Shown here: in pieces, positions 1,117 to 44,100 of the stretch | How the letters are laid out: each line of letters starts with the position of its first letter | Numbering within the stretch: position 1 is the stretch's first letter | NCBI GenBank assembly: GCA_051362555.1 | Contig: CM120642.1 | Span: 18,600,001-18,664,000 of the forward strand | DNA: 64,000 nt | Origin: Lingula anatina | Taxonomy: Eukaryota > Animalia > Brachiopoda | Direction: 5' to 3' | Position numbers and translations under genes: made by a program | The notes under the pieces: generated by a model | Seen by the model: only the letters and a program-made list of their open reading frames with translations | Told to the model about the DNA's origin: nothing | Databases searched by the model: none

Positions 1117-1299
1117 TGCGTCAATTTTTCTACTTCGTCACTGTTCTAATTGTGACGTCATTTTTATTTATTGTATGGAGTGTGACGTCTTTGAACGTTA
1201 CGCCATCTTCCACAAATGACGTAGTGTCATACTGTATGGTGTTTGTTGACGTCATAACCACCATAGCAACTAAACGCGCCCTGAAGAAGTAAACAAACA
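1117..1299 (+). promoter_or_regulatory. Proximal promoter of the gasdermin-like gene: CRE cluster, X-box and forkhead motif
   Basis: Perfect TGACGTCA at 1153-1160 and 1247-1254; near-CREs at 1183-1190 and 1217-1224; CGTCA half sites at 1117-1123 and 1134-1140. ACCACCATAGCAAC at 1257-1270 fits the relaxed RFX X-box RYYNYYWWRRNRAC. GTAAACAAACA at 1289-1299 lies just before the ATG at 1302. Confidence 0.6.
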
Positions 1300-1301
1300 A
1301 G

Positions 1302-1731
1302 ATGAATGACAAACAGTACCATGGTTTGACGACATGTGATCCGGAAAACGCTTGGTCTTTAATTCGGCGCGAGGTTGGATGTCAGTTAGTTGGTAAGACA
1401 AGTAATTTTGGATTTTGTGTCTTCACATAAATTGTGAAAACACACTTAGACATAAGGTTAATATGTGGCACGTTATGGGAGTCATAGATATAGGCTTAGG
1501 CCTAGACTAAGCCCTATTATAAAATTGTATTGCCAATAACTATGAGAAAAAACGTGACTGTAGATCTAGTGGCACCAAGGGTGAGAGCTGAAAAGAAAAG
1601 AAAACCCCATACGTCGATTTCAGTAAAATTTAACGCTGCAGAACAGTCCATCTAATGCTTCCTTTTCGAAAAGGTAGGCCTAAATCTATAGTTATCTACA
1701 GTGAAAACTAACTTCAACAAAAAATAACTTC

Positions 1732-1791
<60 letters not shown>

Positions 1792-4700
1792 AAGGAGAAG
1801 ATGCAGTGGCAGTGCCGTTTTTGTCCGAGGCCCAGGAATACGAAGCTCTTCATATACTCGTCAAAGAGCACCGAGGAGCCATCGAGAAAATCACTCGGAA
1901 AGTTCCGTGTCTGCAAGAGATCGGGCATCTCCGGCATTTTCTTGACATCCGGTCCAACAGTGGGCTAATGGATACCCCCACCCAGAAGGTCGCTGCAGAT
2001 CTGAATACACATTATAAATACGACGTACGTGTTGGATGTTTTTAAAAATGCACTGTTATACCTCACCAGTTTTTCCCACGTGCAAGTCTGATTAGTGATC
2101 TATTTTGATATAGTCCTATAGGATTTACACAAAAATTAAAAAATAAAGTATTTATTTCCTATTTTTTATCTGCGCTAAATGTTTCATTATTTTCAAGTAG
2201 AAAAGTGTAGTCTCAAGCAACTCCGTAGCTATGAATTCTATAAGATTAAATTATTATAATTTCCTTTTCACTCTTTCACAGATCTCAGACATGAAGAACG
2301 GAGAAACCCGAGCTGTAGCTCTAGAGTTACACGGTTGTGAGAAACATGTGGTAAATGTGACCTGGAAAGACGGCGAGCTCATCTTGGATCAGACCGCTCC
2401 AGGTGAGAACTTTCTAAAGTACGGTTTCCCTAAATCATTGAAGACAAAAAAAATTATTTTAGCTTTAAGAAAGATAAATCGCTATGTCACACTAATATAT
2501 ATGGTAACTTTTGGTCTAATAAAATGCAGATTTCTCTCTATATATTTTGATAAAACGCTTACAAGATTTCATTAAGGTTAGCAACTGCTGGTTTATCTGA
2601 GAGCAAAGCTGATCGTTTTCGTCTAAATGTAAAGATAAACTTTCGGTCTAAAGTTAATTTTTGAAAGCGGTACCTGTTGTTAGCGCAAAAAGCAAGCACC
2701 TATTTCAAACTGTTCGTAAACTCTTAAACTTTTCACCTTATACAAACTCAAGCTGCCACGTGCTTATTAATTTTCTGTTAAACTGTAAATCCGCCACGCG
2801 CCACGTGCTCATTAATGTTATGTAAAACTGTAAATCCGCTTATTGCTGAAGTCCACTTTTAATAATAAGAGATATGTCCAAGTTTAAGCTGAAAAAAATA
2901 ATAATCGTCAAATTTAAGGCGCACCGTTCATATTCAATTAGTTTTTCGTTCCAAACTCTTTAACTTTTTATCTTTTAAATTAATGCACCAAAGCTGAAGA
3001 AAAAAAAGCTCTCTGATTTCCCACGGATTTCTTCATCATGATGAGCTCCAGTCACGCACGCTTATTGATCGTTCTCATTATTTCGATTCAAATGATTTCA
3101 AAGATAAGCTACCCGATTGAACGTCCAAATGCCCAAACATCCGAACGCCAAAACTTCAGAAAAAGGTTGCTCACAAAAGATGTTTCCATTTTTGATGTAG
3201 TGGCATTTTCTATCAAAAGGAAAATTTAACAATTTATCTTTCACAGACCTGTCTTACAGACATGTAAGTTTTGTGTGGCGTAAGTGTTTCCTCGAATACC
3301 ATCATTTTGTGAGCACAGCTCAATAGTTTATAATGTGCTCGATCCAAGCTCCGACACGTTGAATCACTGTGGCTACTCGAACACTATATAGTTTGTAATG
3401 ACAATGTTCAACGTGTGATGGGGAATTCTCCTGATCTCCGTTCGAATATTATTCTTGAGAGCATCAGAGGTTTGGGATTGTTGTTAAAGAGACTTCTTTT
3501 AGGCCTCCCCACAGAAAACAATCCAAAGGGCATACAAGTCTTCAATCGTACTGACGACCGACTTTGTCCTGCACATTCAACAGACCCATCGATGTCCCCA
3601 TTGGATTTTTTCTATGTATACGTTAAAATTACCTGTGTTTTCCCTGAATATCTAACTCTACGTTTTCTGGGGTTTTCATCGCTTCTTTGCAACGCTTTTT
3701 CTCTATATTTTCGTCTTCATTCATATCTTAGGGTTAGAAGATACGAAAAAGTTGTACATCATTAAGACAGTGTATTACGTCAGCAAGATCAGAATGACCG
3801 TGACAGTTGGAAAGCGAAGCAATACAATGGAAATGAACGGCAGATATCCCATCGCTTTCACAACGGAAAAACATCAGGTAAAAGTCGCGCAGACGACAGA
3901 GTGTTTTAAGACCAAGAATATCGTAATTATGGTGCAGGTGAACTCATTGGAGTAGATTTATAATACGAGAAGTAATTTCAAACAGATTTTAACTTATTTC
4001 TATGATTACTTAATACTTACATACCCAAGCCCATCGCCTACGGAATCTGTGAATAACAAATTCAATTCAGGGGGCTCGGTGCGTCAGGATATTAACGATT
4101 TAAATTTCTAAAAATTCCTTACCAACCCCGGTCTCTGAAAGCGAGTTCGGTTCTTAAAAATTCTCAAGTTGATACACATTATAATCAGTTGGAGTACCGA
4201 TTCCATATGAAAGATATAATAAATTCAATTTTTTAAGTCTAGAAAGCCCATTTAGTTGTCTTAATTGAATTTTGGGTGTAGGTGTTCAGTCAAATGCTTA
4301 GCAGCTACGTTTATGACAGTGGCAACAACAGAAGGGCGAATTGTAACCGCAAGTCCTGGACAAGGCTGAGTTGTGGTTTAATGGCATGTTAGACCTTTAC
4401 ACATGTATAGTTGAAAAATATTTATGAAAGTTTTTAAGTTTGTCTTAAAAGGAAACTTAAACGACATTAGCCAAAGACGGATCGCCAAACAAAAATTTAT
4501 AAGAACATCTGACACCTTAACAAACGGACTGAATAAGGACAGTTTCCCAAATGAGTATTATTTTTTTCTTTGTTACGTAATGTTGACGAGGTTTACGTTA
4601 GGCACGCTTTTGTGGCATCGCATGTCTTTAACACGTCATCGACGTCACGTATCCTAGGAGTTTTTTCTTTTCTTTTTTTTTTTTTTCAAGAAAGAAGAAA

Positions 4701-5417
4701 GCCTAGCGACCGAAAGTTTAGAAAGGATGTTATATCTTTATAGTAGATCTCGTAGATGCATCATTATGATAACTTATTCATTCCTTTCTCGCCGAGATAC
4801 ACCATGTGCAAAGCTGTAGAAAAAAATTACGATCAAAGGGTTACTGAGTTTTAAGTTTATAATTCTCGTGATAGAGATGGGAATTTGAGACTGGTGAATT
4901 ACAATCACGGTGGTTACGAATAGAAATTAAGAGCTTGCAAACGGGTTTCTAGAACGTAATTTTCCCTGCGCTTTTGGCTGAATACACTTTGATGAATTAA
5001 AGGGGAAATTGATTAAATATGTTTTTCTTATATAAGGGTTTTACGCACATTGCGTGCTTCTTACTAGACTACATAAGGCACGCAGTGTAGTTCGAGAGCA
5101 TAACAATCTAGAAAAGGTAGAGTCAAGAGGAGAAAAACCCTCGGGATGAGGACGACAGCTGAATTGGCAGATTGATTAGTGTCCTTATAAACTAGTTCAC
5201 TTGTATTGAACAGTGCCAGCACCCACACGCTGACTATCTTATTAATCTATCCATAAAAACTGTTATTACTATATTCTTCGGGAGGATTGATTTCAGAAAT
5301 AAAAAGGTCAATCGAAAGATGATTGTAAATGAGTAATTCCCAATGTGGATTAGGGACTTTAAGGGTATAGTCTTAATTGGTGTTAATTTGGTGGTTACAA
5401 ACAAACATACACTCGCG

Positions 5418-5457
<40 letters not shown>

Positions 5458-6900
5458 TTGTGAATATATTCATGCCCTACATGTACATTTCATTTTCCCG
5501 GCCCAAGTTCATTTCACAAACTCTGTTCATTTATTAATTCATTAATTTATTTGTTCACACATTTATTTTACTTGATGATTCGTTTCCTTAAATCGCATTT
5601 CCTTCTTGATCTACCTTACCTTTATCTACATGTATATATTAGATTGACAAAGAGGGCAAACTTTCCCCTGATGGCCAAGACGAGTCCCGCGAGGTAGCTG
5701 GCTACCGTTTCGTCCGTAACTCTGCCTACAGGGACCCTAACGACGAGCTGCCGACCGTCCCCTGCACCGATAGCCAATCAGGGCTCAAAGCCGCCAAGAG
5801 GAACCCCAAAGATCAACTTCCAAAGCTCCCTGCTGCACAGGGTAAGTATTTGACTTTGATTTCGTTTCATTTAAGTCATTAAGCTAATACATTAGATGGA
5901 AAAAGCTTACATGAAAAAGGGATAACAGGCCTACCCAACTACCAGACTCGGCACCGAATGATCCTGAATTCACCGGTAGATCGGACCACACTACCCGTTT
6001 TTAAGGTGTGAGTCAGTACGCATTTCACAGTATCATACCCCAAACAAATTTTGAGTGGTGACGCAATGCTTTTCAACCCCGCTGAGAATCGTCACTATCA
6101 CATCGCGTACTAGGCAAGAGCGGTGTCGCGTCTGATACTGTGAAATGCGTACTTATACACACCTTGAGAACGGGTAGTGTGGTCCGGTGAATTCAGGATC
6201 ATTCGGTGCTGAGTCTGGTAGTCGAGTAGGCCTGGATAACAAATGTTTACTCTGCAATCAGTCCACGCTCGCATTTTTCTCTTGTGTTACATTTTCTAGT
6301 TCTCAGCTACAGGTACAGTTATGTTTTAGTTAACGTTACCTAGACTGGAATAAAACTCTAGAATCCCCATTTTTTTAGTTTCTGTGAACGACTAGTCGCA
6401 ATTTCGAATTCATTGATTTCTTCTTTTGTGTCGTTACGTACCTTACAAGAGCCTTATGTAAACTTTGCATCTAATTCATTATTTTTTTCTGTCCATCTAA
6501 TTGAAATCACTTCGAGATTTTAACCTCGCTAATACCTGATGATTTAACTGATTTTTTAATTGTTCAATTAATTTTACTTTTTTTAATAAGTCCCTTTTCA
6601 CATTGAGCAGTACATTAAACCGGACCGGTCCACTTCGAGAGATTTGCTTTTTTTATTAAAACATTTATAACATAAACGGAGCCCCTGTGCTCGACACAGC
6701 CAGTTTAACGATCTAAATAAACAACAGGGAGCGCACTTGCGAAAAGGGAATAAAAAACCCAACACCGTAACTGCATATTATGGCATCTCTAAATAGACCG
6801 GTCCACTTTGACGTGACTTTGCGAAAAGGGCCTTATTCAGATATTTGTTCTCGTTTTAGGATCAGATCGCGGTCCTCTCCCGCCGATACCTAAAGAATAA
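1302..6900 (+). CDS. Gasdermin/pejvakin-like protein, 275 aa, 6 coding exons (N-domain plus short Pro-rich tail)
   Basis: Exons 1302-1392, 1795-2024, 2282-2402, 3732-3877, 5643-5841, 6860-6900. All junctions GT-AG, phases 1,0,1,0,1 consistent; 828 nt from ATG (A at -3) to TAA. Protein MNDKQYHGLTTCDPENAWSLIRREVGCQLVGEDAVAVPFLSEAQEYEALHILVKEHR...KLYIIKTVYY...SNTMEMNGRYPIAFTTEKHQIDKEGKL...GPLPPIPKE. The gene model is high confidence; the gasdermin assignment is by eye and more tentative. Confidence 0.8.
1736..1790 (+). repeat. Poly-T tract (about 55 nt) serving as polypyrimidine tract of exon 2
   Basis: Uninterrupted T run ending just before the GAAG acceptor (AG at 1793-1794). Confidence 0.9.
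2755..2840. repeat. Two-copy direct repeat, about 40-45 bp
   Basis: GCCACGTGCT(T/C)ATTAAT..CTGTAAATCCGC occurs twice in tandem. Confidence 0.75.
5414..5454. repeat. (CG)n(CA)n microsatellite
   Basis: cgcgcgcgcgcgcacacacaca... read directly. Confidence 0.9.
5926..6234. mobile_element. MITE with long TIRs and 5-bp TSD (CAG...CTG ends, hAT5-like)
   Basis: CAGGCCTACCCAACTACCAGACTCGGCACCGAATGATCCTGAATTCACCGG is mirrored at the right end; the inverted arms extend about 110 bp. GATAA flanks both sides (5921-5925, 6235-6239). Confidence 0.85.
6585..6837. mobile_element. Small TIR element (unclassified MITE)
   Basis: Imperfect TIR AATAAGTCCCTTTTCACA / TGCGAAAAGGGCCTTATT; GACCGGTCCACTT is repeated internally. 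Confidence 0.55.
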
Positions 6901-6920
6901 ACCACGGGTGTTCCGCCGTA

Positions 6921-7083
6921 GCCGTCTAGATTTGTAAAGACATTTTTTTTTTAAATTTCATTATGATATAAGATATTTTAAAATTTTTCATTATGTGCCA
7001 TATTGCAGCCGTCTAGATTTACAAAGACAATATAAAATTTTTCATTTTGTGCCATATTGCAGCCGTCTAGATTTACAAAGACA
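6921..7083 (+). repeat. Three-copy direct repeat in the 3' UTR
   Basis: GCCGTCTAGATTT(G/A)(T/C)AAAGACA at about 6921, 7008 and 7062; the last two are preceded by GTGCCATATTGCA. Confidence 0.8.
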
Positions 7084-7288
7084 TATACGTGCCAAATTCT
7101 GATGACTTGATTATATCACCTCAAATAGTGACAGCACAAATTGTGACATTTACGAAAATAATTCCGAATGTTACTTTCCAACTTTAGATTACTTTTAGTT
7201 TAAAAACTACATTTTTTAAAAAACTACATTTACAATTTCTAATTGTTACTTTGAGTATAAAATGGAACATGGGAAGCACTCATATTTA

Positions 7289-7294
7289 AATAAA
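7289..7294 (+). terminator. Candidate polyadenylation signal of the gasdermin-like gene
   Basis: AATAAA about 390 nt after the stop, followed by T/GT-rich sequence. A second AATAAA overlaps the stop codon (6896-6901). Confidence 0.5.
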
Positions 7295-9892: not shown

Positions 9893-10438
9893 GAGCGCAT
9901 TCTCAACGAATTAAGCCAGGCTTTACAAAGCCGGTGACCTAAAAATGGCGGACGTACATGAAAGAAAAAGCGCCTAATCTTTTAATAGTCTCTCCGCCTC
10001 TCACACGCCTCCCCACACGTCGTCCCTGCGGGATACAATAATTAAATCTCGGCTCCGAACATTAATATTTCCGTGAATATCTCTGGTGATATTATCTCCG
10101 TAGATAGTCGATTCATTGCTTCTCTACGGGCCAAATTATTCCTTTTTCGTCTCTGTTTTCAAAGATAATAGAACAGAAGAGCTTTTTTCCTTCGATCGCC
10201 TTCAGCCGCCATGCTTTCTTCACCACGAGTTTAACTGATGAGCATGCGCACTTAATATTTCTCAGGTAGCTTCCGCATGGCGAACGGTGCCGAGATTTAA
10301 TTACTGTACCCCGCAGGGACGACGTGTGGGGAGGCGGAGAGACTATTAAAAGATTAGGCGGTTTTTCTTTCATGTACGTCTGCCATTTTTAGGTCACCGG
10401 CTTTGTAAAGCCTGGCTTAATTCGTTGAGAATGCGCTC
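9893..10438. mobile_element. PIF/Harbinger-like MITE with about 170-bp TIRs
   Basis: GAGCGCATTCTCAACGAATTAAGCCAGGCTTTACAAAGCCGGTGACCTAAAAATGGC is inverted exactly at the right end. TAA TSD at 9890-9892 and 10439-10441. Confidence 0.9.
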
Positions 10439-11518
10439 TAAACTGTTTGAAGTTGCCTAAATTTCTGAACGTTCAGACAGGCTTTCGGTCCAAAGTTTTC
10501 TTGTGAATACAGTCCCAATAGCTAACGTAAGCTACATGTATTACCTAGCGTGCGCGGTTGATATTTCAATCAAACCACGTCATATTAATACGCAAGTTGT
10601 AGAATAAAACAAAAAGCAAAGCTTACACATTTTTTATTTGCTATTTTTATAAAAAAAAAATTGTATCCAACATCAAACAGCTTTTAATTCAATGCCATTC
10701 TTACATCACAGATTTAAATTTAAAATTGTTCATTTCTCCATAAAATATACACATCTATATGCATTTATCCTTTGATATTTACACACGTAAGTGTTCTAAA
10801 AACACATCTGATTAACCAATAAATAGAAAATGCAAAGCATAAACTTTCATAATTTTACTTTGGTATCATGTCCTTCTCGCTATTTACTGGCGTAGTAACT
10901 AAGTACGTGCCAACAGCCTCGTTTTTGGCTGTTTCGGATGATTTCCATAAGTCACAGCAATCTCAGTCAAAAACGCTAAAATGTTGTATTGCACTAATAG
11001 ATATAGCTCATTTGATTATTACACGATTTTAACTTAATTGAAAGAACTTGTTGAAACAAGATTTCAACATTTGCAGATGGATTATTTCACCTGGCAATAG
11101 AAATACTGAAGGCATATCAAAAATTGTAATGCTATTTATTTGAACATAATCATATCGATTTTTTTAATTATACAAACTGATGAAGTTATAAAAAAGATCT
11201 ATATATGAAAAAATGAAATAGTCATTGCTTATCAAATGGTATATTTTACTATTTTCATTAAAACTTGCAACTGGCATCTGCATTAGAATAACCAAGTTTG
11301 TCACTAAAGCACCATTCAGCATTTTTTAAATCACAGATCAAAGCTCAATAATGTTATAATACATTTAATTCTAATCTACTGTGATATATGTACTACTTAT
11401 ACCTTCTAAAAATGATGAAAATAGATACAAATATGTGCCCTTAAAATGAATAAACTGTAAAAAAAAAGCACTGCAATTTTGTCAAATGAAATATGTAAAA
11501 CTGACAATGAAAAATCAA

Positions 11519-11923
11519 AGGTATAGTGAGCGAACTATTGGGACAAAACATTTATTTTTAATTCTGTGAAAAATTTTTTTGCCTAATGTCAATTTCATAT
11601 CACCCCGAGGTTCATAGATAACATCTGAGGCATGCTGAGGCTATAAATGAGAGTCCAGTTATCTGATATACAGGGCAGCTTCAACCTATTAATTTACTGA
11701 AAAATCTTTTTCCAAATTTCGTAATTCTTTTTTTTTTTTTAATTTTTGCAGTCTTAACAAGAACTAATCACCACCAATTACCATAATAAAAATCTCATAG
11801 TATTTGTTTTTGAAAAAGCAATGTAAGTTTTGAACACAGCACATTTAAGTTATGTTACAAAATCCCTAATATCAATATCGAAATTTATTTTGTTTTGAGA
11901 CACAAAATTCACCCATTATACCT
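11519..11923. mobile_element. Kolobok-like MITE (TTAA target)
   Basis: TCAA|AGGTATAGTGAGCGAA ... TTCACCCATTATACCT|TTAA. Confidence 0.65.
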
Positions 11924-13328
11924 TTAACAGACTTGGCTAACAAGTGTCTGTTGGTTTCCTTTCCCATAATTAATACTAATTCAAAACAACTTGACTAGAA
12001 TCGATAAAAATGAAAATTGTTGGCACTGCTATCAGTTCTACTCAATACTGTTAATTGTGTGACAGACTAAAATTTAATTTAATTAAATGAGACTTAGGTT
12101 TCTATAATAATCGAATACAGTAAAATTAAAATGCAAAAAATTGTGACTGCTCATGAAATGACCTGCCCTTCCCCCTGACAAAAAAAAAAATATATTGTGA
12201 CATTGTGTGGTGGGCAGGGGCAATATTTTTGTATAATTTTCAGCATACAACTTAAGTGGAATCACATATATTATCTGCATTTATCATGCTGACACCAATC
12301 AATGCACTCAGTGACATTCATTTCCAACCAGTGTAATATTACAGGCTATTTTTGATTGCAGTAGTTGCTACAACACATTCTCAGCTTTTCTCAACTACAG
12401 CATTCGGGTCTTTGTTAAGGTCTCACTAGAGGGCAATGGCAGACACCCCCCCCCCCCCCCCCCAGTGTTTGCCTCTTAGGAAAATAAGTTGCTGGACCGA
12501 AAGCTCAGCCATCTTGGAAATTAGCTGGCTAGAATGCCTGCCGGGTGGGAAAACTTCTCTGCCCATTCTGAAAGTTGTCTGCCCCGGGCAGACGGTCCAG
12601 CCTTAATTTCTAACACTGCCCCCCCCCCCCCCCCATTAAAAAAAGGAGGTATTCTCCTACCCCCTTGAAAAAATAATGTAACAGGCTAAATGAGACAAGA
12701 AAATATTTTCCCTTTCTGTACCTTACACATTACAGTAAAATTTATCTACTCTACTGTAAGTAATTTTGTTTTTACCTCACTTCAGTTAGCAAAAAAAAAT
12801 TCCCCTCCCACTTCTTGCCCCCCTCAAGAAAATTCCTGGCTCTGATAGTGAAAACTTTTCGATTAACAAGCAAGCTGTCTCTTTCTTTCTCTCTCTCTCT
12901 CACACACATACAAACACACCCACATACACACACTCACAGTAAATACTACAGCATTCACATCCATCTCATGTATAACACATTTCCAATTTGGAATTCACCT
13001 TTTTAAAATGTAAAGAATTGGAGATAACTTATATTGTGTAGATTAGATAAAAATGCATAACTATTAAATATTTTCATAATAATTTGAGCACAATAAAATA
13101 TTCACAACCAGACAGTCATACAGTTTTACTGATTTTTAAATAACACTACATTGCAGCTAAAATTAAATTAAATTAAGTTAAATTAAATTAAGGACATTGA
13201 ATTAAAACACTATAAACTCAGAAAAATCCTGTTAAATTTTTCCAAGTCCATAAAAACTTCTTTCTATAAAAATCTACCAAATACGAACACCCTGATGCAG
13301 CGTCCATCCTGGCATGAGAAAGGACGCC

Positions 13329-16300
13329 TTACTTGGTGGCAGTCCCCATCAGCATTGGTTGAATAAGTTTAAATTTGATAGCAGAGTTGAAGTGTTCTTG
13401 GTCAACACTTGAGAAGCCTGCCTTCTCAATATGAAGTGCTGTGTCTTGAAATTCACACCCATCACCTGAAAAAATAATAATAATACCATAAAGTATGAGC
13501 TTTACCTACTTGTGATTATATTCAATCTACCTGTAATAAAGATCTACATAGATTTGCTATACATTTTCCTCACAAGTGACTAAATTACATATAAAATTGT
13601 AAGAAATGGTAATTAATATCCAACACAGACAGTCTTATTGGTTTATAACAGAAGGTATTTCATATATTTGTCTATCATGTAATTTTTAAAGAATAAATAA
13701 ATCAAAATAGAAATTTCTCATTCGGAAATATTTTAAATTATCAGCCATACATTCTATAAATCAAATAGAACTGCTGCATCAGTGACAATAAAAAACACAG
13801 AAGAAAAGAATACATTCATTTGATAAGATTCTTCAAACTTTTTCTCGTCTTGGTCTTGGAACAATTGGTCTACATTCATATGCTGCAAGAAAGAGAATGA
13901 GATTATTATATTTCAGTTTCCCATAAATTCAGTATGCCTCTCCATTTTGTTGGCCATATTTCCTTTGCCTTAGAGGCTCCTACAAAATGATGACAATAAT
14001 AATAATGAAAGTAGTAATATCAATAGTAATAATAATAATCATTATTATTATTTATTCTTATATGGCATATTTCATTGAAATCTCAATGCACCTTACAAAT
14101 CAAGAACTATAAATTAAAAACTTCTGATTAAAGTACAAAAGGAATTATAATTAACATCAATTAAAATTTATTTACCAATTATAATTAAAATCATGTATAA
14201 TTAAGATCAATTAAAGGATGGAAGTCTTAAAACAATAAAACTTTACAGTATCAGTACTAGTAAGTAAAAACTGGTTTAAAATGCAAGTCTTTAAAAGAGC
14301 CTTTGAATTTTCCAACTCATTTGCCGCAGTTCTTATATCACATTCAAAGTAAATTATATAACTTTGGTGCATATATTATAAATGCACATTTGTCATTAAA
14401 AAATACTTTAATTTTTTAAGGTGCGTTCTAAAAGGAAATGCACCATAGTACCACAGGCCAAAATTCTTACGGCAAAAACTGAGTACATGTATGTAGTATT
14501 TTGTCTGTCTATATGATTGTATACTGAGCTACAACTAAGCATTTGATATAGTTTTTTGCTGCCTTCCATCCTAGATATTGTGTTTATTGGGGTCACTTCA
14601 TGGTTGGCTTATTCAAAAGCCCCATGCAACAAAGAAGTGCTTGGTCTGCACCCTCTCGTGGAAGAGATTTTTGAATAGATCTCTTTTCTTTTCACCAAGC
14701 TCCAGGTAGATTGGAGTGCCAACAACCCAACCCTCGCAAGCTCCAAAAGCGCTGGTGATTCCTTTACATGTGGAATAGTTGTACCAGCTCAAGAGGGAGC
14801 CTCCTCGCTGCTGTGACCAAGACTTCTCCCTGATTTACGAAAATCAGAAACTTAGGACATTTTCAAATCAAGAAGTACAGTTTTCTCTGATGCTCCAGTT
14901 TGAGAGGCTGACAATGTAAATGCCTGGCTATAACATAAAAGAGTCACCTAAACGAAGCCCCCATATCCCAGTTAAAAGGGGATTCAGAACACAGGACTAA
15001 TAGATCCATGGATCAAATATGGCTGACCCACTTGAATCCTTGTGTTATCTCGGCAGAGAATCTATTCAGTGTCTAATCGGGAATTAAGCAGCAAGATTTT
15101 TAGTTTTATTTGATCTGCAGATTTGTTGCACCCCATTTCCATAGATTTTTAGATCGATCTATCCCTGTGGGGAGTCTCACTAGATAACTGTCAGCTTGGC
15201 CGGCTTAAGCGTCTGTCCCGCCTACTAAAAGCTGTAAGGGGGTAATTAACTATGGTGCCCGCTCAGCTGACTGCAATTTAGCGTGAACCCCCAGGGAGTT
15301 AGGTCGATCTAAAACTTAATCTTTAGATCGATCTAAATCTCTGGGAAAGCACCCTTGGTCAGCTGCTCTGAATACACTCTTAAAATGGATTCATTTTGAA
15401 TGAGGCCACTAGGACATGTGAAAAAGAGAAAGACCCCATTCCCATACCTAGACCTTTCGACCAGGATCAATCATCTCCCGAGGGATTTCTCCTAAATTGC
15501 TTTTTTTTTTTGCACTGATGTCTGGCATGCCTACTGAAGCTGCTAGGGTTAATTAACTATTGTTTAGCAGCTTCAGTGCATGTGCCAGACATCTAAACCA
15601 CTTAAGCTAAAAGCAGTTTAGTGAGAAACCCATTGGAGATGGATAGATCCTGTTAGATTGATATAGGTATGGGAGTGGGGTCTAAGACCACAGCCTGTGG
15701 TGTGATTACATATTAGGAGCATTCAAACTGGTGTGGTCCAAAGAAACTGTACTGCCCTATAAGAAAATTAAGTTCCTAAAACATGATAAAACTGGCTGTT
15801 TAATCAAAAGCAAGTACCTCGGGCACATCGTGTTAACCTTGTCTCACTCAATTGCAGTGTATGTATTTCATAAATCACTGCCACTCACCTTCTCAAATAT
15901 TATACATATCCTCTGCATCAAAAATGAAACAGTATCACCATCTTCTGGTCCCAATTTCATAAAAAAAACTTAAGTCAGTTTCCTGGCTTAGTTGACTAGG
16001 ATTTCCATGAGAGTGCTGTTACACTGTTCCTGATAGGGTAAGATGTGCCTATGTGACCATGTAACCTTGGTAAGTAAGTTCTTAGCCAGTGAACCTGACT
16101 TGAGTTTTTTTGTAAAACCAGGGCCAGATCTAACCTGACTGACAGTAACATCAAACCTTAACAAAAACAATGTCTGTTCAAGAGAGTACTGACCGACCCA
16201 TTTCCACACTGGCCTGATGAAATTTTGCATCTTGTACACCCATGGATGTGTCTTTTTATCAGCTAGCACATGCTCCAGGAAGTAAAATTTCCCTCCCTGG

Positions 16301-16674
16301 AAAGATAAATAGCAAAGGACACTGTTTACAATACAGTACTGCATTATATATTATACTAACCATTTCTAAGTTCTGGTTAGGCTTGACTGTCACTTGATAG
16401 GTTTATATAAACCTAAAAACCACAGGAAACAACTTAAGTAATTTTTTAACATATTAACTGATTTGGATCATGTTTTTAGCAATTTAGTTGATTAGAACAT
16501 ATAGTATTCCAAAGCCATTTTCTGGATATCATCTGATTATTTAATTTAGCATAACCTGAAAAGCTCTATTGTCAAGTAAAATAAAAATAAAATGGTTAAA
16601 ACAGGATAAAGGTGCAACTACAGACCAGTGGGACACATAAGGCATCTGCACTCCTTTTAACTTCGGTGGTTTCC

Positions 16675-16705
<31 letters not shown>

Positions 16706-17292
16706 CACGACATTCATGGCAATTATACTTGTAGGTATAAGAGCGAACTGATATATGTCGAATTTAAAGAAATACTTACTGGGCGTAAAACCCTTTTTAT
16801 CTCCTTCAACACTTCTTCTATATCTTCTACGCTACATAAGACGAATGTACACACTATTGCATCAGCACTGTTATCATGAAACCCGTGTAATTTCTCTGCC
16901 GTTCCTACCACAAAACCCTTCAAATTCACGTGAGGGAATTTGGAGTGGTTATCCTTTAAGTACTTCTCAAAATGTGGGTTTGGATCGATGCAGATAAGGT
17001 TTGATCCAGGGGGATAATATTCAAAATTCGTGCCCCCTCCGACTCCGATTTCTAAGATATCCAGCGGTCGACCGTCAACATGTAATTTCGCCAGTGATGA
17101 AAATAATCTCTCCTTTTTCCTGTATGCTTTTTTCGCCATGTGAAACCCCAGTCGGTTTAAGAGCCAAGCATAGGCAGCCTTATAAGGACTGTAAATATAA
17201 CTATTGATATAGTTTAAAATTATAATCACAAGTGCCCAGGGTAACACGTAATTCCAAATGAAGGCAGAAACTGTGGCGTCCACCTCCGCCAT
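13329..17292 (-). CDS. METTL7A: Thiol S-methyltransferase TMT1A/METTL7A-like, 250 aa, 3 coding exons
   Basis: Exons 17292-16780, 16296-16194, 13465-13329; GT-AG, phases 0 and 1; 753 nt. N-terminal hydrophobic anchor, SAM motif ILEIGVGGGTNF, IDPNPHF, CTFVLCSV, RVLRPGGKFYFLEHV, GDGC, and C-terminal GTATK as in METTL7. A versus B orthology cannot be resolved. Confidence 0.93.
14975..15379. mobile_element. Harbinger-like MITE (ATTCAGAAC family) interrupted by a nested MITE
   Basis: The left part matches 62461-62600 (CAAATATGGC.GAC.CACTTGAAT...GAATCTATTCAGTGTCTA). Its right end resumes at 15355-15379 (CTGCTCTGAATACACTC). TTA flanks both sides. Confidence 0.7.
15129..15354. mobile_element. Harbinger-like palindromic MITE (TTCCCA..GATCGATC family), nested
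   Basis: Reverse-complement homolog of 58482-58695; central GTAATTAAC; TTG TSD at 15126-15128 and 15355-15357. Confidence 0.85.
15432..15682. mobile_element. Harbinger-like palindromic MITE (same broad family)
   Basis: GACCCCATTCCCATACCTA ... TAGGTATGGGAGTGGGGTC; highly similar along its length to 25838-26093. Confidence 0.85.
16678..16706. repeat. (CT)n microsatellite
   Basis: Read directly. Confidence 0.9.
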
Positions 17293-17577
17293 GTTGAGTT
17301 AAACTAGGTCAAATGAGGCCAATCTATTAATAGATTCAAACGGCACCCACATCGAGACTCTGTTAGTTGAGAAGTAATTAGTTGAGATTATTTTCTAAAA
17401 CACAATCAAGGGGAGGTTTCACAAAAATGATAAAAAAAATAATAATAGTAAAAGAAAAGGAAAAGAATAGCTCCGAAAATTAATCCAAAACTGGATCAAA
17501 GATTTGGTCTACCTTGGTTAAAGATAAATCCATGTAGTTCTCCACTTAAATGAAATACCTTTATAGGCCTACATGTA

Positions 17578-41177: not shown

Positions 41178-44100
41178 CTAAACGCTGCTCACTGCTACAT
41201 TTTTGTTGACCTCTTCCTCTGGCCACCCCTCCTCACCGTCCAGTCCGTTCTGCTCCTCTATCACAGTGCTGTATCTCTGACCAATAGTGGGACGATACCC
41301 CGGATACAGCTTGTCTTGATTGTGGACAAACGTGAACGCCGACTGTCGGGAATCCTGCAGGTGGTGATGGTTCAACTTGCCGTGCTTGTGATAAGGGAGT
41401 ATTACAGGCGCATAGCTGATACTCTCTAAGGGAGATGGGGGAGGGGCGGAGGGGAAATCCATGTGACTTCTCTGTACGGTAAATACCGAAAATGGAGATT
41501 GTTCTAAGTTTGAGTCATCTGAAGGGGAGTTAATTCGTAAGTCCTTGGGTGGTGTCTTCGTTAGACTTAATGTTTGAGCAACATCCCTAACAGGCGACTT
41601 CTTACCATTCAAAACAGCCCCGTTGCTGTGAATGTACTCATTGTTTTGTGAGGCAGCCTTTTGTGAAAGAGCTTCGGAAAGCTTTTTGCTTTCTTCTCGA
41701 GGTAGAGTTCCCAGATCACCCGGTTCTAAAGCAGGCCTACAAGCCTGTCTGTAAGAATCGTTCAATTTTCTCCGGTCTATCTTAAACCCGATCTCCGAGG
41801 CTTCTGTGTCCGTATAAACAACGTCGTTGTTATGGAACACCGGGTTCTCAAAGCCCACTTTTTTGGGTACATAAAGATTTATCTGCTGTCCATTAAAAAC
41901 GGGAGATTTTGAAACTCCGCGTTTCACTGGGGACGCCGCCCTTGCAATCCCGGGTACTACAGTATTTATCTGTTGCGGATTTTTCAAAGCCCGAGAATCA
42001 AGAGGCTGCGGTTGAATTTTAACTTTTTGTTTCACAGGGGGCGGCTGCATGCCAGGAATATGTCCGTTACGCACTGCGGTCGGCTTGTTACGCACCACAA
42101 GTCTTTCTCTATCGCTCGTCTGGAGTAATGAAGATTCTCGCGAAGAATCCCGCAAGTCCGGAGACGAGACCTGAATGTCGGATGGAATCCTGCCCTCTGA
42201 GAACGATTCTTCAGACGTTTCTAGGCTAGAACCTCGTTCGATGGCACTGTCGGTGTTCGGAGATTTAGAGGGCGATAGCGACCGCCTTTCTTTTGGTAAA
42301 AGTTTTCTGGTGCTATCTTCCAATAACCTCTCCCTTCCTTCGCTCACCATGCTCTCTGAACCAGGGGACAGATCAGAGGACAGTTCCGCCCTCGTTGTAT
42401 CGTTAAAACTTGTGTTAACTTTCATGGAGTCAATGACGCTTCGTCCACTTATATTGGGACTTGTCACATTTTGGGTGGTGTTTGAGACCTCCTGACCCCC
42501 ACTTGACCCCTCAGTGTCATATCCCTCACGTGGGGAGTTCGGCTGTGTTTCCGGTTCCTGTTCCTCCTTAACTGTCGTGATCACTGATATTCGACCATCT
42601 GCCATATCTCGTAAATCCTCGCGAGACATAATGATACTTTCCTGTGACTTCACTCGGTATATATCGTCCCGAGATTTGCCGAGGTACTCCTGAGACCTGG
42701 TCCTCAGACGGACGCGCCGAGACATCACCTGCTCTTCAGACGGGCGCTTTGGGTTCCGTAAGTAGTTCTGGAACTTCTCAGAACCGTAGAATAGACGATC
42801 TGTGAGCTCCCTGATAGATCTGTCCTTCTGTAAACCAAATTGGAAGCTATTGACTAGCAGTATTTGGGTTATGGCAATGTAAACAATTTCAAGATTATTG
42901 GCAGAATCAAAAGATAGTAAATAACAAAATTATTGTCAGTCGAGAATTTTTTCTACAATGGATAGTAATATATTTCGTTTTGCATGTTACTATGTTACAT
43001 GAACAAGTTTGGCATATGACATGTTTATCTTGGTGGAGTCACTGCTTCACATTTATTTCTTTTCTATGGCAACGAAGAGGACTATTTTACTTGCCTCTTT
43101 AAGCATTCGTTTCAGAGTATCAATTTCCGTGGCGACAACTTCTTTAACATATGGATTATCTTTGGATTTTTGACCACCGAAGCATCCACAGAAGCCATCC
43201 TTAGTTTTCTCTTTAGTTTTCTGTACAGATTCGCTGAAATTGAACTTCGGTTCTGCGCCTTTCTTTCTCTTCTTGTCGTGTTTTCTCACCAACAGCACCT
43301 AAACAACATTAATAGAAGCAAAGAGTAGAAACGCTTATATCTTTGCAGTATTACCATAAAATACGATTAATCGAGAAAGGTAAATTTCGTATTCACATTT
43401 ACAAAGAGATAATAATACTAATTTTTATTTAACTTATGTCAATGGTGGATAACAAAGTACATAGCACATGAAATATAATAATGTGTTAAAAGAATAAAAA
43501 CAGACGTTAAAAAAAATGAAATAGTGATATTTTTAGGGAATATAGAAGCGTGACAAACCTTTGGAATGAAGGCAATGGTGAGCGTGGCAGTTGTGAGCAC
43601 GATGAGGGCCGTGGCTCCAGTGGCGTACTTTATAGGCGCCGACATCTGTGTTGAGAGCATAATGGGAAGAATAAGAACGCCAACGGCAAAGGCGCTGTAA
43701 ATTATGACGTATAAATACTGGCTGTCTTTCAGTGAGGGCAATGTCACGTGACGCGTCTGCCATGCGCAGTAGAGTCCTCCAATCAATAGCAGCATCTTGT
43801 ATCCAAAGAGTAGAAGTATCCACATTGCGAAGTAATCTGACGTGCATTCATTGATTGAGTGCATGATGTCAGTGTTACTGAGATTCTGAAAGGTAAATGA
43901 CCACTTAGTAGAGGTTCACTGCTACTAAATCTGTTTTCATAGAAAAAATAAAACATATGCAGTTTTTGCTCACTTTTTATCTTGCCGAAACATAAACAAT
44001 AATTTAGAACTATATTAGCGGTATCTATTAAAAGCAGAGACGAACCAAATTTTCCAACAAGTTGCGGTTACTGTCTCACCTGATATACTTTGACCTGTGA

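Follow-up and report, generated by a model that had tools for sequence, protein, structure and literature searches.

A predicted six-exon gene near the start of the window

We analyzed a 64,000-nt stretch of DNA (contig CM120642.1, positions 18,600,001 to 18,664,000; hereafter the window) and found near its start, on the plus strand, a six-exon gene whose predicted 275-residue product belongs, as judged from its sequence, to the DUF4663 family (Pfam PF15668). A sequence-only reading of this DNA had taken the gene for a gasdermin without its C-terminal autoinhibitory (repressor) domain. The features of the locus are listed below; P0005 is a partial homologue described in the next section.

1117..1254, no strand assigned: six-site cyclic AMP (cAMP) response element (CRE; CREB/CREM/ATF) cluster in the likely promoter or 5' leader; two perfect TGACGTCA palindromes (1153, 1247) and four half-sites (1119, 1136, 1183, 1217)
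1302..1392, + strand: exon 1, residues 1-30; start codon, conserved Cys12 and predicted helix alpha1; DUF4663 positions 10-35, E 0.012; 12/30 identical to P0005
1795..2024, + strand: exon 2, residues 31-107; DUF4663 positions 39-67, E 0.0036; 25/76 identical to P0005; putative strand pair (likened to pejvakin by the sequence-only reading), basic loop and onset of hairpin 1
2282..2402, + strand: exon 3, residues 108-147; DUF4663 positions 136-174, E 0.0027; 13/40 identical to P0005; putative remainder of a short hairpin 1
3732..3877, + strand: exon 4, residues 148-196; DUF4663 positions 176-230, E 0.0094; putative core strands and truncated hairpin 2
5643..5841, + strand: exon 5, residues 197-262; domain end and Pro/charge-rich tail; GC 0.58, strong donor, weaker acceptor, no Pfam match
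6860..6900, + strand: coding part of exon 6, residues 263-275, then TAA; R-x-x-L-P-P-x-P motif; no homology or RNA support
6896..7294, + strand: likely 3' untranslated region (UTR); AATAAA signals at 7289 and, overlapping the stop, at 6896

The six-exon model is present in the sequence, and its splicing is predicted. Joined by GT-AG introns with phases 1, 0, 1, 0, 1, the exons give 828 nt, or 275 codons plus TAA with no internal stop, preceded by an in-frame stop at 1290, 5' of the ATG. This bears out the earlier claim of six phase-consistent exons and a 275-residue protein, and the protein stretches quoted with that claim occur in the predicted product in the order given. Scored with textbook frequencies, all five donors fall between the 92nd and the 99.9th percentile among all plus-strand GT sites. 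For pyrimidine content, three of the five acceptors rank higher than the 95th percentile; exons 5 and 6 have weaker ones (67th and 81st, respectively). GC content is 0.50 in exons versus 0.36 in introns, and exon GC at third codon positions (GC3) is 0.53, against a background GC of 36%. Some 50 T residues in a row (1739-1790) directly precede the exon 2 acceptor, which ends in AAG.

Expression was assessed in four of the nine RNA runs that carry the window's species label, using approximately 6, 6, 25, and 6 in 100 of the reads of each. In this partial reading, none of the four runs contained exon reads or splice joints, a result that gives the gene no confirmation but would fit restricted expression. 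RNA reads within the gene were confined to introns and fell mostly on an inverted-repeat element in intron 5. That element (5926-6234) resembles a miniature inverted-repeat transposable element, with 51-nt terminal inverted repeats that are 94% complementary and inner arms of 64 nt, and the many loose-ended reads on it point to a repeat that is common in transcripts.

The product belongs to DUF4663

The sequence-only reading had named a Pfam profile scan as one check on its gasdermin assignment. We scanned the exons singly at E ≤ 10, exon 6 being too short to scan. Gasdermin (PF04598) went unmatched in the five exons, and also in P0005 at E ≤ 1; DUF4663 was matched instead, as the top family for four of the five, colinearly over exons 1 to 4 (15.1, 16.9, 17.3, and 15.5 bits). 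Each exon alone scores below the family cut-off of 25, and the rough sum of the single-exon scores is 64.8. Exon 5 had no Pfam match. The gasdermin chains in the PDB gave no sequence match at E ≤ 10 either, with exons 2 and 4 among the queries, short pieces that lower the sensitivity.

A HMMER search of 1.84 billion proteins with exon 2 returned five matches, four of which were repeat proteins and were dropped. The fifth, P0005 (182 residues, from one Logan contig; E 1.1e-4), has DUF4663 as its sole family, at 88.4 bits. It aligns with the model over residues 1-155 (99 bits), with 50/146 residues identical over exons 1 to 3, and the BLOSUM score of the pair is 268, compared with a maximum of 56 in 1,000 shuffles. 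The likeness ends at the end of exon 3 and gives way to a hydrophobic tail, which suggests that the P0005 gene call runs into an intron at the same place. Searches that depend on shared exact words or on large clusters found no further relatives, which is weak evidence that the family is rare.

The alignment with P0005 is ungapped at junctions 1/2 and 2/3. The DUF4663 profile is in exact register at junction 1/2 (residue 29 corresponds to position 35 and residue 33 to position 39) and at junction 3/4 (residue 147 to position 174 and residue 149 to position 176). Because these two outside sources track the model across its junctions, exons 1 to 4 are supported far beyond chance. For exons 5 and 6, where homology support is missing, the model draws only on splice signals and composition.

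We file the protein under DUF4663/C11orf42 and not with the gasdermins proper, because it matches the DUF4663 profile and neither the Gasdermin profile nor a repressor domain was found in it. It is probably an invertebrate, new member of a named and barely studied family.

Relation to human C11orf42

DUF4663 is presumably the family of the human testis protein C11orf42 (UniProt Q8N5U0); our literature searches retrieved nothing on DUF4663 or PF15668, the link is missing from the two supplements searched, and the searches for relatives retrieved no vertebrate family member. Given this presumed link, the gene is a likely orthologue of human C11orf42, with a colinear match to profile positions 10-230 and a shared layout of a domain of about 200 residues plus a tail, with no repressor. 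The protein is more compact than the profile, with about 21 positions fewer between 67 and 136 and 10 fewer in exon 4, and it differs from C11orf42 in its probably invertebrate source and its six coding exons.

Human C11orf42 has been called a gasdermin-fold protein without membrane-penetrating regions from a structure search (PMC8986115). It is mostly spermatid specific and interacts with SNX5 (PMC8564638), and in interaction networks it falls among SNX-BAR/retromer complexes, grouping with SNX1, SNX2, SNX5, and VPS29 (bioRxiv 10.1101/2022.06.20.496772). Among the works that our searches returned, PMC8986115 was the only one to connect C11orf42 with gasdermins; the available sections of a gasdermin evolution paper are silent on it. 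The earlier suggestion of an undescribed animal subfamily is not supported, as the family already has a Pfam model and a gasdermin fold for C11orf42 is already proposed in PMC8986115.

By analogy with C11orf42 as reported there, the protein probably has a gasdermin-like fold. Structure models of P0005, which lacks the exon 4 strands, had predicted local distance difference test scores (pLDDT) of 40.7 and 37.1 on shallow alignments, and a Foldseek search with these low-scoring models gave no match. The sequence-only reading had counted, by eye, 10 of 18 putative identities to pejvakin. It is unlikely, in our judgment, that the protein is a DUF4663 member for which the C11orf42 link or the gasdermin fold is wrong, that is, a small alpha/beta protein with another role whose motif likenesses are due to chance. 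Such a reading can point to the presumed nature of the DUF4663-C11orf42 tie, to the models that yielded no fold, and to the weakness of a likeness seen by eye over 18 residues. However, the motif-based gasdermin call and the structure-based C11orf42 call (PMC8986115) agree, given the presumed family link, and the putative succession of elements, from an N-terminal helix through a strand pair, a hairpin and core strands to the tail, fits gasdermin topology (PMC12547243, PMC10584675).

Tail and 3' end of the gene

The matched domain comprises residues 1-200. Prolines make up 11 of the 79 residues of the Pro/charge-rich tail (197-275) versus 6 of the 196 before it, and the tail is probably disordered. 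At its C-terminal end is the R-x-x-L-P-P-x-P motif, which we take to be of the class I SH3-ligand type. No transmembrane helix was predicted (maximum Kyte-Doolittle value, 0.94). Since the 367-position DUF4663 profile continues for 137 positions past the matched domain, a tail belongs to the family layout; here it is about 80 residues long. The proposal of a gasdermin fold of about 200 residues followed by a short Pro/charge-rich tail is probably right, the tail being seen directly and the fold reached only by way of the printed account of C11orf42.

The frame stops at residue 275, after the Pro-rich tail, and the model has no C-terminal helical repressor domain. A screen for phase-1 exons of at least 25 codons between 5900 and 16700 gave six candidates, all at background GC (0.32-0.43). 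With this stop and no convincing downstream exons in that screen, the proposed lack of an autoinhibitory domain is probably correct, although RNA does not confirm it. Weaker acceptors and missing homology in exons 5 and 6, together with the absence of exon RNA in all four runs, could instead mean that the 3' model is wrong, with other downstream exons that possibly encode a repressor, or that the gene is silent or no longer expressed. We hold this to be quite unlikely: the frame is intact over six exons with GC3 well above the background, the six downstream candidates look like background, the DUF4663 profile is itself only 367 positions long, and a convergent minus-strand transcript at about 10.4 to 12 kb, suggested by stranded reads (see below), would limit the room for further exons.

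Hairpins, cysteines, and comparison with gasdermins

Two anchor motifs around the putative hairpin 2, taken from the sequence-only reading, are 33 residues apart, versus about 57 between the corresponding anchors in gasdermin D. On that spacing the hairpin-2 region would be about 24 residues short, close to one whole hairpin, which leans against membrane-spanning hairpins. The putative hairpin 1 likewise spans a shorter region, which has a charged tip and shares an Asn-Gly turn with P0005. Gasdermins insert two hairpins, beta3-beta5 and beta7-beta8 (PMC12547243), of 27 to 30 residues each in GSDMD and GSDMA3 (PMC11802827); both hairpin regions here appear too short to cross a bilayer, in agreement with the membrane-penetrating regions reported as absent from C11orf42 (PMC8986115).

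Cys12 and Cys126 are common to the protein and P0005, and Cys69 is not, as judged from this one homologue. Both proteins are slightly acidic over their first 70 residues. DxxD motifs occur at residues 206 and 227, just past the domain, in a region that P0005 ends before. The DxxD motifs, the two shared cysteines, and the absence of a repressor would suit a true pore-forming gasdermin, restrained either by a disulfide-linked dimer, as in Trichoplax, or by a short tail that a caspase removes, as in bacteria. We nonetheless regard such a pore former as quite unlikely, since neither Pfam (five exons and P0005) nor the PDB gave a gasdermin match, hairpin 2 would be short by the gasdermin D spacing, and each DxxD site has a Glu after it, a residue that we take to be disfavoured by caspase-3. 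Repressor-less and short-tail pore formers are known (PMC12547243), and PMC8986115 predicts, but does not show by experiment, that C11orf42 has lost the ability to form pores. However, the Trichoplax domain has 250 residues against about 200 here (PMC12547243), Cys69, which probably lies near the beta1-beta2 loop, is not kept in P0005, and pejvakin is likewise repressor-less yet non-lytic (PMC8742441).

Pejvakin (PJVK/DFNB59) resembles the protein as a gasdermin relative without repressor exons and without lytic activity, but it retains a large part of the membrane-insertion segment and is presumed to be defective in oligomerisation (PMC8742441), whereas in the protein here, which has no PF04598 match, it is apparently the hairpins that are lost. 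GSDME and the invertebrate two-domain gasdermins probably share its fold and, like it, carry the N-domain on four exons (PMC8742441). In contrast to them, it has apparently short hairpins and no repressor domain, and its exon boundaries are shifted relative to the hairpins: intron 2 would split hairpin 1, and hairpin 2 would lie within one exon. Trichoplax gasdermin, Neurospora RCD-1, and the bacterial gasdermins have a single domain or a short tail, as here, and the conserved Cys close to the predicted N-terminal helix is reminiscent of a cysteine that is palmitoylated in the bacterial proteins (PMC12547243). Unlike the protein here, these have domains of about 250 residues, full hairpins, and 22- to 52-mer pores (PMC12547243), and their PDB chains have no sequence match to it. 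The conserved beta1-beta2 loop cysteines of the Trichoplax disulfide lock were not found in the comparison with P0005. The earlier likening to Trichoplax, fungal, and bacterial pore formers is unsupported, given the apparently short hairpin regions and the account of C11orf42 in PMC8986115. Further unannotated gasdermin-like clusters have been described (PMC10584675).

A CRE cluster before the start codon

Two of the three perfect CRE palindromes of the window sit in the 200 nt before the ATG. Counting a palindrome as two, there are 8 half-sites per 200 nt, versus 3 in the next best 200-nt interval, and 0 of 5,000 shuffles reached 8; the CRE five-mer class ranks first of 512 in the stretch before the ATG. 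Motif and interval were picked after they had been noticed. In mouse, CREM drives spermatid genes through full and half CRE sites (PMC3091680). The cluster hints at germline expression, and together with the silence in four RNA runs it would agree with expression in spermatids, as seen for the human gene (PMC8564638).

Neighbourhood of the gene

The likely 3' UTR contains a 54-nt tandem duplication with a third copy of 24 nt (6920-7084). A heavily covered repeat at 9935-10390, with strand-switching joints in the RNA reads, is probably another inverted-repeat element. Two RNA runs have stranded reads at 10444-12000 (first mate on the plus strand, many mismatches), probably from the 3' UTR of a transcript that runs convergently on the minus strand and may belong to a methyltransferase gene or a paralogue. 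An S-adenosylmethionine-dependent methyltransferase gene lies on the minus strand at 15988-17298 (Methyltransf_11, E 5.8e-18) and is presumably METTL7/TMT1-like. Class C G protein-coupled receptor genes are clustered on both strands from 20661 to 57000; pieces of them match ANF_receptor, 7tm_3, and GABA-B receptor chains, and one is identical to human GABA-B receptor 2 at 59/113 residues of the membrane region by our own count. The methyltransferase and receptor genes mark the window as animal DNA, and this degree of identity points to an invertebrate, less probably to a diverged paralogue in a vertebrate. A minus-strand frame at 41178-42929 encodes 583 Ser/Pro-rich residues with no Pfam match, perhaps a very long cytoplasmic tail.

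Proposed role and significance

The reading that we favour, and consider probable, is that the gene encodes a DUF4663 protein, likely the C11orf42 orthologue, with a predicted gasdermin palm whose hairpins are likely too short, acting, probably in the male germ line, as a non-lytic scaffold associated with membranes. The gasdermin-derived palm would be kept while its hairpins are too short for a pore, and we propose that a protein unable to make pores has no need of a repressor domain. The surface formed by helix alpha1 and the basic loop may bind membranes, and conserved Cys12 may be lipidated there; the tail may recruit SH3-type, trafficking, or cytoskeletal partners in germ cells; and CREB/CREM-type factors may activate the gene in a restricted cell type. 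CREs serve stress and cAMP responses too, so the germline role is a lead only. Pejvakin is a precedent for a repressor-less, non-lytic gasdermin relative (PMC8742441).

More tentatively, and with the balance in our view tilting against it, C11orf42/DUF4663 could be a third branch of the animal gasdermins that is older than the vertebrates and lost its hairpin tips by an early deletion. Disarmed in this way, it would have persisted over hundreds of millions of years as a germ-cell protein under CRE control, one that can still bend membranes or oligomerise on them but does not pierce them. Its invertebrate members would retain a visible sequence link to pejvakin and GSDME that the human protein, for which 1% identity is given in print, has lost. 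If this is true, a resemblance known from structure alone would become demonstrable common descent.

The protein is not the unrestrained pore former that had been proposed, and it is to that extent less of a surprise. The gasdermin link is already in print; what is new is a probably invertebrate member and the six-site CRE cluster before its ATG. The family is known by name and from one structure-mining paper. A probably invertebrate member would place the disarmed branch before the vertebrates, invertebrate sequences could help to connect the family with pejvakin and GSDME by profile-profile comparison, and the protein may offer a natural hairpin-less control for what the gasdermin palm does without pores.

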